This document shows positions 1 to 2,415 of a DNA stretch of 6,779 nt, piece after piece. The stretch is from a virus (lineage: Duplodnaviria > Heunggongvirae > Uroviricota > Caudoviricetes). The position numbers were made by a program, and so were the translations under genes. The stretch lies in IMG/VR virus record IMGVR_UViG_2703718808_000010; one strand, written 5' to 3'. The notes below the pieces were generated by a model. That model had not been told where the DNA came from. It did no database searches and worked only from the letters and a program-made list of their open reading frames with translations. The number at the start of each line of letters is the position of its first letter. Position 1 is the first letter of the stretch.

Positions 1-2415
1 AAGGCGTGGGATGTGCTCAGTGATTTCTGCTCGGCGATGCGCTGTATGCCGGTATGGAACGGGCAGACGCTGACGTTCGTGCAGGACCGACCATCAGATA
101 AGGTGTGGACCTATAACCGCAGTAATGTGGTGATGCCGGATGATGGCGCGCCGTTCCGCTACAGCTTCAGCGCCCTGAAGGACCGCCATAATGCCGTTGA
201 GGTGAACTGGATTGACCCGAACAACGGCTGGGAGACGGCGACAGAGCTTGTTGAAGATACGCAGGCCATTGCCCGTTACGGTCGTAATGTCACGAAGATG
301 GATGCCTTTGGCTGTACCAGCCGGGGGCAGGCACACCGCGCCGGGCTGTGGCTGATTAAAACGGAACTGCTGGAGACGCAGACCGTGGATTTCAGCGTGG
401 GTGCTGAAGGGCTTCGCCATGTACCGGGCGATGTCATTGAAATCTGCGATGATGACTATGCCGGTATCAGCACCGGTGGTCGCGTGCTGGCGGTGAACAG
501 CCAGACCCGGACGCTGACGCTCGACCGTGAAATCACGCTGCCATCCTCCGGTACCACGCTGATAAGCCTGGTTGACGGAAGAGGCAATCCGGTCAGCGTG
601 GAGGTCCAGTCCGTCACCGACGGCGTGAAGGTAAAAGTGAGCCGTGTTCCTGACGGCGTTGCCGGATACAGCATATGGGGGCTGAAGCTGCCGACGTTGC
701 GCCAGCGCCTGTTCCGCTGCGTGAGTATCCGTGAGAACGATGACGGCACGTATGCCATCACTGCCGTGCAGCATGTACCGGAAAAAGAAGCCATCGTGGA
801 TAACGGGGCGCACTTTGACGGCGACCAGAGCGGCACGGTGAATGGTGTCACGCCGCCAGCGGTGCAGCACCTGACCGCCGAAGTCACCGCAGACAGCGGG
901 GAATATCAGGTGCTGGCGCGCTGGGACACGCCGAAGGTGGTGAAGGGCGTGAGCTTCCTGCTCCGTCTGACCGTAACAGCGGATGACGGCAGTGAGCGGC
1001 TGGTCAGCACGGCCCGGACGACGGAAACCACATACCGCTTCACGCAACTGGCGCTGGGGAACTACAGGCTGACAGTCCGGGCGGTAAATGCGTGGGGGCA
1101 GCAGGGCGATCCGGCGTCGGTATCGTTCCGGATTGCCGCCCCGGCAGCGCCGTCGCGGATTGAGCTGACGCCGGGCTATTTTCAGATAACTGCCACGCCG
1201 CATCTTGCGGTTTATGATCCGACGGTACAGTTTGAGTTCTGGTTCTCGGAAACGCGGATTACCGATATCAGGCAGGTTGAAACCACAGCCCGCTATCTTG
1301 GTACGGCGCTGTACTGGATAGCCGCCAGTATCAATATCAAACCGGGCCATGATTATTACTTTTATATCCGCAGTGTGAACACCGTTGGCAAATCGGCATT
1401 CGTGGAGGCTGTCGGTCAGGCGAGCGATGATGCGGAAGGTTACCTGGATTTTTTCAAAGGCCAGATAACCGAATCCCATCTCGGCAAGGAGCTGCTGGAA
1501 AAAGTCGAGCTGACGGAGGATAACGCCAGCAGACTGGAGGAGTTTTCGAAAGAGTGGCAGGACGCTAACGATAAGTGGAATGCCATGTGGGGCGTCAAAA
1601 TTGAGCAGACCAAAGACGGCAAACATTATGTCGCGGGTATTGGCCTCAGCATGGAGGACACGGAAGAAGGTAAGCTGAGCCAGTTTCTGGTTGCCGCTAA
1701 CCGTATCGCGTTTATTGACCCGGCAAACGGGAATGAAACGCCGATGTTTGTGGCGCAGGGCAATCAGATATTTATGAACGACGTGTTCCTGAAGCGCCTG
1801 ACGGCCCCGACCATTACCAGCGGTGGAAATCCACCGGCATTTTCCCTGACATCAGACGGAAAGCTGACCGCTAAAAATGCGGATATCAGTGGCAGAGTGA
1901 ATGCGAACGCCGGGACGCTCAACAATGTCACGGTAAATGAAAACTGTACGATTAAGGGCATGCTGGAGGCGACTCAGGTCAGAGGTGACTTCGTTAAAGC
2001 TGTATCCAAATCATTCCCGAAACAGGCTGGTACGTGGGGTAATACGGAAACACCAAACGGGACGGTTACAGTCACCATCAGCGATGATCATAACTTTGAC
2101 CGTCAAATCATTATTCCGCCCATTATCTTTAACGGAATAGCGTATAGCGATCCGGGAAGTGGTAATAACCCGGGAGGTACAAGATACACGGGTTATGGTT
2201 TTGAAGTTCGCAAAAACGGTGTATTAATCGCATCCAGAGAAACTAAAGGGGCCATTCCCGGTAGCTACAGTGCGGTTATTGATATGCCGAGTGGCAGGGG
2301 AAGCGTCACTCTGGAGTTTAAGGTTTTCCATAAAGGCAATCAGCGGGCAGGTAATATCACCGACTGTACGGTGATTGTGACCAAAAAAGCGGCTTCAGGC
2401 ATCAGTATTCGTTGA
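1..2415 (+). CDS. J: Tail-tip host specificity protein J, C-terminal ~800 codons; 5' end lies upstream of the window. The true reading frame is open from nt 1, so the track's GTG at 13 is not the start.
   Basis: The translation from nt 1 ([34 protein letters not shown]...) matches my recollection of lambda gpJ nearly residue for residue through ...NADISG.VNAN.GTL.NVT. Two fibronectin-III-like segments are present (approx nt 847-1130 and 1141-1420). Stop TGA at 2413-2415 is followed by a rho-independent terminator. The frame is uninterrupted across 2.4 kb. Confidence 0.9.

Follow-up and report, generated by a model that had tools for sequence, protein, structure and literature searches.

Which receptor-binding domain does the J protein of this lambdoid prophage carry, and was it exchanged between phages as a unit? 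The window examined here, that is, the whole stretch of 6,779 nt, covers the tail end of a lambdoid prophage of E. coli, as indicated by the order of its open reading frames and by Pfam assignments. The C-terminus of J determines host specificity (PMC3509688; PMC11101478), and a first-pass annotation of the window had proposed that J carries a swapped, horizontally acquired receptor-binding module at nt 1930-2415, marked by divergence from lambda and a sharp drop in GC content, and directed at a different outer-membrane receptor. We assign nt 1921-2412 to the phage 434 (h434) version of the J receptor-binding domain, read as an exchangeable cassette that would dock onto OmpC and act through a lambda-like trigger, and place the probability of this reading at roughly 0.88. 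The features of the window are as follows:

nt 1-2415, + strand: J (tail tip / central fibre protein), truncated at its 5' end by the window edge; last 804 codons, confirmed by Pfam
nt 1-1920, + strand: conserved part of J, comprising the end of the hub domains, a pair of Ig/FNIII domains, helical shaft and central straight fibre; near lambda and 434 alike
J aa 1-165: Phage-tail_3 (Pfam)
J aa 277-381: Ig_J (Pfam)
J aa 383-485: Ig_J_second (Pfam)
J aa 512-639: Phage_Tail_Tip (Pfam)
nt 1891-1958, + strand: left cassette junction, conserved among receptor-binding-domain types; similarity to other types stops here
nt 1921-2415, + strand: C-terminal receptor-binding domain of J, 434 / h434 type by Pfam, identity and AF2 model; 164 aa plus stop; predicted receptor OmpC
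nt 2377-2415, + strand: right cassette junction relative to the A8/Turner type; conserved last codons of J
nt 2438-2463, + strand: terminator-like hairpin and T-run in the J-lom gap, GGCGTCAGGAATGACGCC then TTTTTTATTG; phage 434 has an annotated terminator at the corresponding place
nt 2486-3085, + strand: lom (Ail/Lom outer-membrane beta-barrel protein), 434-type allele (Pfam Ail_Lom, E = 2.5e-122)
nt 3112-3133: strong terminator-like hairpin in the lom-stf gap, AGCCCGCC…GGCGGGCT then a T-run; fits the terminator annotated there in 434
nt 3144-6221: stf (side tail fibre), 1025 aa (Pfam)
nt 6221-6779: tfa (tail fibre assembly), truncated (Pfam)

The window J was aligned with the J proteins of lambda (NC_001416), phage 434 (OL657226) and PhiR49_1. 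Taken in 40-aa blocks, the window J protein is 88-100% identical to lambda J through aa 640 (nt 1920) and 20-50% identical thereafter; its identity to 434 J is 88-100% in such blocks along the whole length. DNA identity to lambda follows the same course, at 96.8% over nt 1-1200, 94.6% over nt 1201-1920 and 47.9% over nt 1921-2415, with closely spaced mismatches setting in at nt 1922-1953 and a blastn match that stops at nt 1971. The break, at J aa 641, coincides with a domain boundary, directly after Phage_Tail_Tip, which ends at aa 639 (Pfam). The divergence from lambda J that had been placed at about nt 1930 is therefore real, and its starting point was well located, but the stretch unlike lambda is longer than was claimed: it extends past J, takes in the terminator between J and lom along with most of lom itself, and gives way to renewed similarity only at nt 2958, within lom (blastn).

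The divergent C-terminus of J is the lambdoid Ig_GpJ_C receptor-binding domain. Pfam places Ig_GpJ_C (PF12421, 'C-terminal receptor binding domain') at J aa 668-803 of 804, covering positions 1-134 of the 135 in the profile, with an E-value of 8.4e-26 and a score of 91.1 bits against a curated cut-off of 26.2. The C-terminus also aligns over its full length with the solved gpJ chains of lambda (8XCJ/8XCK) and A8 (9WCA/9WCB). An AF2 model of J aa 631-804, computed as a monomer, is all-beta (mean pLDDT 79.7) and was matched by Foldseek to the beta-sandwich domains in 9wcb, 9wca, 8xck and 8xcj with a probability of 1.0 and TM scores of 0.68-0.70, the best structural match being A8 gpJ. The receptor-binding domain follows the hub, Ig/FNIII domains, shaft and straight fibre, and the genes downstream are in the order J-lom-stf-tfa. 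Although the first-pass annotation had ascribed LamB binding to the C-terminal ~250 residues, the receptor-binding part is the last ~165, and it is far less similar to lambda than the upstream part of J (38.5% protein and 47.9% DNA identity to the lambda tip), so that it does not belong to lambda's LamB-binding type.

Base composition differs modestly across this boundary and does not fall sharply from 60 to 45%. The local figures on which that description was based are about right (68% GC at nt 841-900; 43-45% at nt 2041-2220), but J is not at ~60% up to nt 1930: GC is 61.3% over nt 1-1200, already 52.2% over nt 1201-1920, in sequence that is still ~95% identical to lambda, and 46.7% over nt 1921-2415. 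The top single maximum-likelihood changepoint of nt 1-2415 lies at nt 1176, with a log-likelihood ratio (LLR) of 17.0, and a second changepoint at nt 1920 has an LLR of 1.7, which was matched by 285 of 500 shuffles. Total GC does not change significantly at nt 1920 (52.2 to 46.7%, chi-square p = 0.065), whereas GC at third codon positions (GC3) falls from 62.1 to 46.3% (Fisher p = 0.002). A discontinuity near nt 1930 is thus present in GC3, but it was ruled out as the main compositional signal, given that lambda-identical sequence at nt 1176 holds the dominant changepoint and that GC3 alone among these measures supports nt 1920. Lambda's equivalent C-terminal segment has a GC content of 54.2-54.6%, the window module being ~7 points below it; by type, the C-terminal domain has 54.6% GC in lambda, 47.6-48.0% in the 434 type (window 47.6%) and 47.2% in the phage Turner type. 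The GC argument for a foreign origin of the J tip is weak.

The largest GC step in J, at nt 1176-1200, takes GC from 61 to 52% and GC3 from 73 to 62%. It sits roughly at the boundary of the two Ig-like domains, the second of which starts at aa 383, and falls in sequence common to lambda and 434. Lambda has the same step, which is therefore long-standing in J rather than peculiar to this prophage.

The type of the domain was examined by a translated search of the last 164 J residues against 50,697 phage records. Identities were bimodal, with 74 records at 93% or above, 169 records below 60% and none between, and no match in the low band exceeded 46.2% among the matches listed. At the protein level the domain is 100% identical to that of phi458, 99.4% to those of Stx1a- and Stx2c-converting phages, 98.8% to that of cdtI, 95.1% to that of mEp460 and 93.9% to those of both phage 434 and lambda h434 imm21, compared with 38.5% for lambda. 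DNA identity to 434 over nt 1921-2415 is 91.7%, and the sequenced lambda h434 imm21 hybrid (OM418627) carries the 434-type domain. By these identities, the J tip of the window is of the phage 434 / h434 type, clearly set apart from the other types.

Comparison with other phages shows the J tip to be an exchangeable cassette among lambdoid phages. Phage Turner, which has an A8-type tip, is 94.8% identical to the window over nt 1-1958 and 94.3% identical over nt 2377-4631, through lom (blastn), and the mismatch is limited to a sharply bounded 418 bp at nt 1959-2376. An Stx2c phage has 99% DNA identity over nt 1921-2415 and only 80% over nt 1-1200, and hence presents the same tip on another J backbone. 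The left-hand flank (…NADISG.VNAN.GTLNNVT.N.NC…) is kept across types, with many invariant columns among 18 domain sequences representing several types; the protein homologue search behind this comparison gave mainly short partial J fragments, which were used for alignment and not as a census of types. Functional chimeras of lambda gpJ have been obtained with natural C-termini joined on at lambda aa 964 (PMC11338833), an engineering junction that maps to aa 631, nt 1891, of the window. Conserved flanks (~nt 1891-1958 and from ~nt 2377 onward) would let homologous recombination swap receptor specificity while leaving the rest of the tail untouched.

An account without module exchange would hold that the C-terminus is simply fast-evolving under host-receptor selection and has diverged gradually from a lambda-like ancestor, the GC difference being noise. 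The non-significant step in total GC at nt 1920 (p = 0.065, with 285 of 500 shuffles reaching the same changepoint score) fits this account, as does the continuing homology of the domain to that of lambda, with 38% identity and the same fold. Gradual change is, however, difficult to reconcile with the lack of intermediates between the groups at ≥93% and <60% identity, with a domain that is 99% identical in DNA on an Stx2c J backbone only 80% identical, with ~94-95% identity to Turner on both sides of a sharp 418-bp gap, and with the fall in GC3 at the boundary (p = 0.002). Since these four observations need recombination, gradual divergence was rejected, and we give it hardly any chance of being correct. 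A swapped module, exchanged horizontally between phages, as had been proposed at first pass, is borne out by the bimodal identities, the Ig_GpJ_C boundary, the difference in the Stx2c backbone and the gap relative to Turner.

Further mosaicism was seen within J. Relative to Stx2c_PV98-693, blocks are 48-80% identical in nt 61-780 and 93-100% identical from nt 781, which places a second mosaic boundary at ~nt 780 and implies that J is pieced together from at least three exchangeable segments. PhiR42_1 and PhiR34_1 have a different, longer helical-shaft segment opposite nt 1500-1583 of the window (170 nt for 84 nt), owing to which their J proteins are ~28 aa longer.

Calling the module 'acquired' takes lambda as the reference, and lambda is in fact the unusual one. 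Of 5,426 complete E. coli genomes, 2,111 (~39%) contain DNA of the 434-type domain (nt 1950-2415), with 1,096 records at ≥95% identity and 1,004 at 90-95%, compared with 98 of the 5,426 for lambda's type, all at ≥99% identity and mostly laboratory strains, which top the list. The Turner/A8 type had matches in 2,458 genomes, including 1,484 records at ≥95%. The J tip of the window is consequently a very common natural variant, and the lambda tip is rare in natural E. coli.

With regard to the receptor, replacement of lambda J by the 434 gene leads to binding of OmpC, the receptor of 434, instead of LamB (PMC3509688; PMC11101478), and the 434 fibre trimer has been docked onto trimeric OmpC by AlphaFold3 (PMC12502783). 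Given its 94% identity to 434, we infer that the window J tip binds OmpC rather than LamB; the earlier suggestion of a different outer-membrane receptor gains support from this close homology (93.9% to 434/h434, reported to use OmpC). At least three other J types, A8, 1A2 and phi330, also use OmpC (PMC12502783; PMC11338833), and a solved OmpC complex exists for another J type (PDB 9wcb). OmpC use is thus not unique to the 434 type, and the receptor is not readable from the fold alone. No receptor experiment on the exact window allele was found in the literature, nor were receptor data for phages with near-identical domains (phi458, PhiR49_1 and mEp460), the literature on phi458 being covered at the level of titles.

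Cryo-EM of lambda in its closed and its open state has shown that each domain inserts its four bottom loops into LamB, and that in the complex with LamB the domains spread, with a twist of the straight fibre, a flip of the helical shaft and opening of the tip (PMC11101478). By analogy, three copies of the beta-sandwich domain would stand at the distal end of the central tail fibre of the window phage, their distal loops docking onto the trimeric porin OmpC and not onto LamB. Docking would spread the three domains, the movement would travel up the straight fibre and helical shaft, and the tail tip would open and trigger DNA ejection. The shaft and fibre are ~95% identical to those of lambda, on which basis the downstream trigger is probably the same, with OmpC as the docking partner.

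A 32-residue stretch of lambda J (aa 902-933, including F924) is identical in the window J, where it is encoded at nt 1705-1800. According to PMC13043305, the prophage abortive-infection nuclease HepS is triggered by this stretch of lambda J, and a phage with a tail of the window type would presumably be sensed by HepS as well.

A narrower question is whether the sub-allele found in the window recognises the same receptor as the classical 434 allele. Over their last 200 aa the two J proteins differ by 12 substitutions, and six of these are inside the domain proper (S671A, Q675K, A676V, N686D, S716D and R766G). Most of these six appear to lie in or beside loops; because the main text of PMC11101478 does not specify residue ranges for lambda loops L1-L4, loop positions were taken from the secondary structure of the AF2 model alone. 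The substitutions could alter the set of OmpC variants that is recognised or, with lower likelihood, the porin itself. In its stronger form, this would mean that the cassette is of the 434 type but that the sub-allele shared with Stx1a and Stx2c phages and phi458 has moved to another receptor, either a different porin, for instance OmpF, or the OmpC variants of non-K-12 strains only. The location of the six substitutions in variable parts of the domain is compatible with such a shift, and there are precedents: phage 21 and lambda reportedly gain the use of OmpC or OmpF through single or few mutations in J (PMC11336670), and the 1A2 type discriminates between OmpC variants, with efficient delivery to EDL933 OmpC and not to MG1655 OmpC (PMC11338833). 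The division of E. coli genome matches into groups at ≥95% and 90-95% identity points the same way. Set against this are the 94% identity to 434 without insertions or deletions, the absence of data toward another receptor, and the growth on K-12 strains of phages with near-identical domains (phi458 on MC1061; PhiR26_1 and PhiR34_1 on MG1655), which fits use of a K-12 surface protein. We consider a change of receptor improbable and retain OmpC as the predicted receptor of the window J. A subtler difference, in which the window sub-allele, common to O157 Stx1a and Stx2c phages and phi458, is tuned to natural OmpC variants other than those of the classical 434 allele, is less far-fetched and may be entertained as a tentative idea, albeit one we would not expect to hold. 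If it did, the genome sub-groups at ≥95% and 90-95% identity would represent host-range classes within one cassette type.

The neighbouring genes show related patterns. The window Lom has 45% protein identity to lambda Lom; lom is part of the divergent J-tip block relative to lambda and is conserved relative to Turner, which indicates that the J tip and lom have been exchanged sometimes jointly and sometimes apart. The middle of Stf (~aa 120-450) is long, repetitive and rich in Ala, Ser and Thr, with A strongly in excess over T at nt 3500-4800; near the C-terminus there is a repeat rich in His, Ser and Gly. From lom onward lambda matches the window only in patches (nt 2958-4040, 4363-4620, 5541-5819 and 6072-6552), so that stf is a mosaic too. 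Similarity to other phages and to most genomes ends at nt 6552, within tfa. The closest genomes, at 99.7% identity, are from cheese and cattle E. coli, and in the closest of these, E. coli UC4224, the gene order is L, K, I, J, lom, stf, tfa; past the point matching nt 6552 an IS3-family element is annotated within tfa, followed by the remainder of tfa. Because tfa is interrupted by IS3, the prophage may be defective with respect to its side fibres.

The J tip described here was already known, the h434 allele and its OmpC specificity having been part of classical phage genetics since the 1970s. The assignment carries little weight as a discovery, and the modular junction in J is already in use to engineer lambda particles with new receptors. 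Its value is for annotation: the appropriate label for the window J is 434-type, with OmpC and not LamB as the probable receptor. Knowledge of which OmpC variants each sub-allele accepts would be of some practical value in picking receptor-binding domains for phage-based delivery.

Among the systems available for comparison, phage 434 has a J (UMO75286.1) like that of the window, with an unbroken DNA match over nt 1-3571 at 95.3% (blastn), the same lom allele and the same following terminator, and the domains of 434 and lambda h434 imm21 have no indels relative to that of the window. The side tail fibres differ, with 437 aa in 434 and a much longer 1025 aa in the window. Stx1a and Stx2c phages of E. 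coli O157, cdtI and phi458 have nearly the same domain (98.8-100% protein and 97-99% DNA identity). The gpJ of A8 (9WCA; 9WCB with EDL933 OmpC), which is of the Turner type, is a natural C-terminus that redirects lambda particles to OmpC when fused at aa 964; it has the same fold as the window domain but is a different cassette, and at 46% identity it was ruled out as the same domain. The gpJ of 1A2 likewise redirects lambda particles to OmpC from a fusion at aa 964, and was also ruled out, being of the '…RDSRAPERWPSG…' type (the supplement was machine-read with errors, but the type is unambiguous). The lambda domain (8XCK closed; 8XCJ with LamB) shares its fold and Pfam family with that of the window (TM 0.70), from which it differs in that the window domain is longer by 5 aa and has a longer loop, and in that the lambda tip binds LamB and not OmpC, whereas OmpC is the predicted receptor of the window tip.
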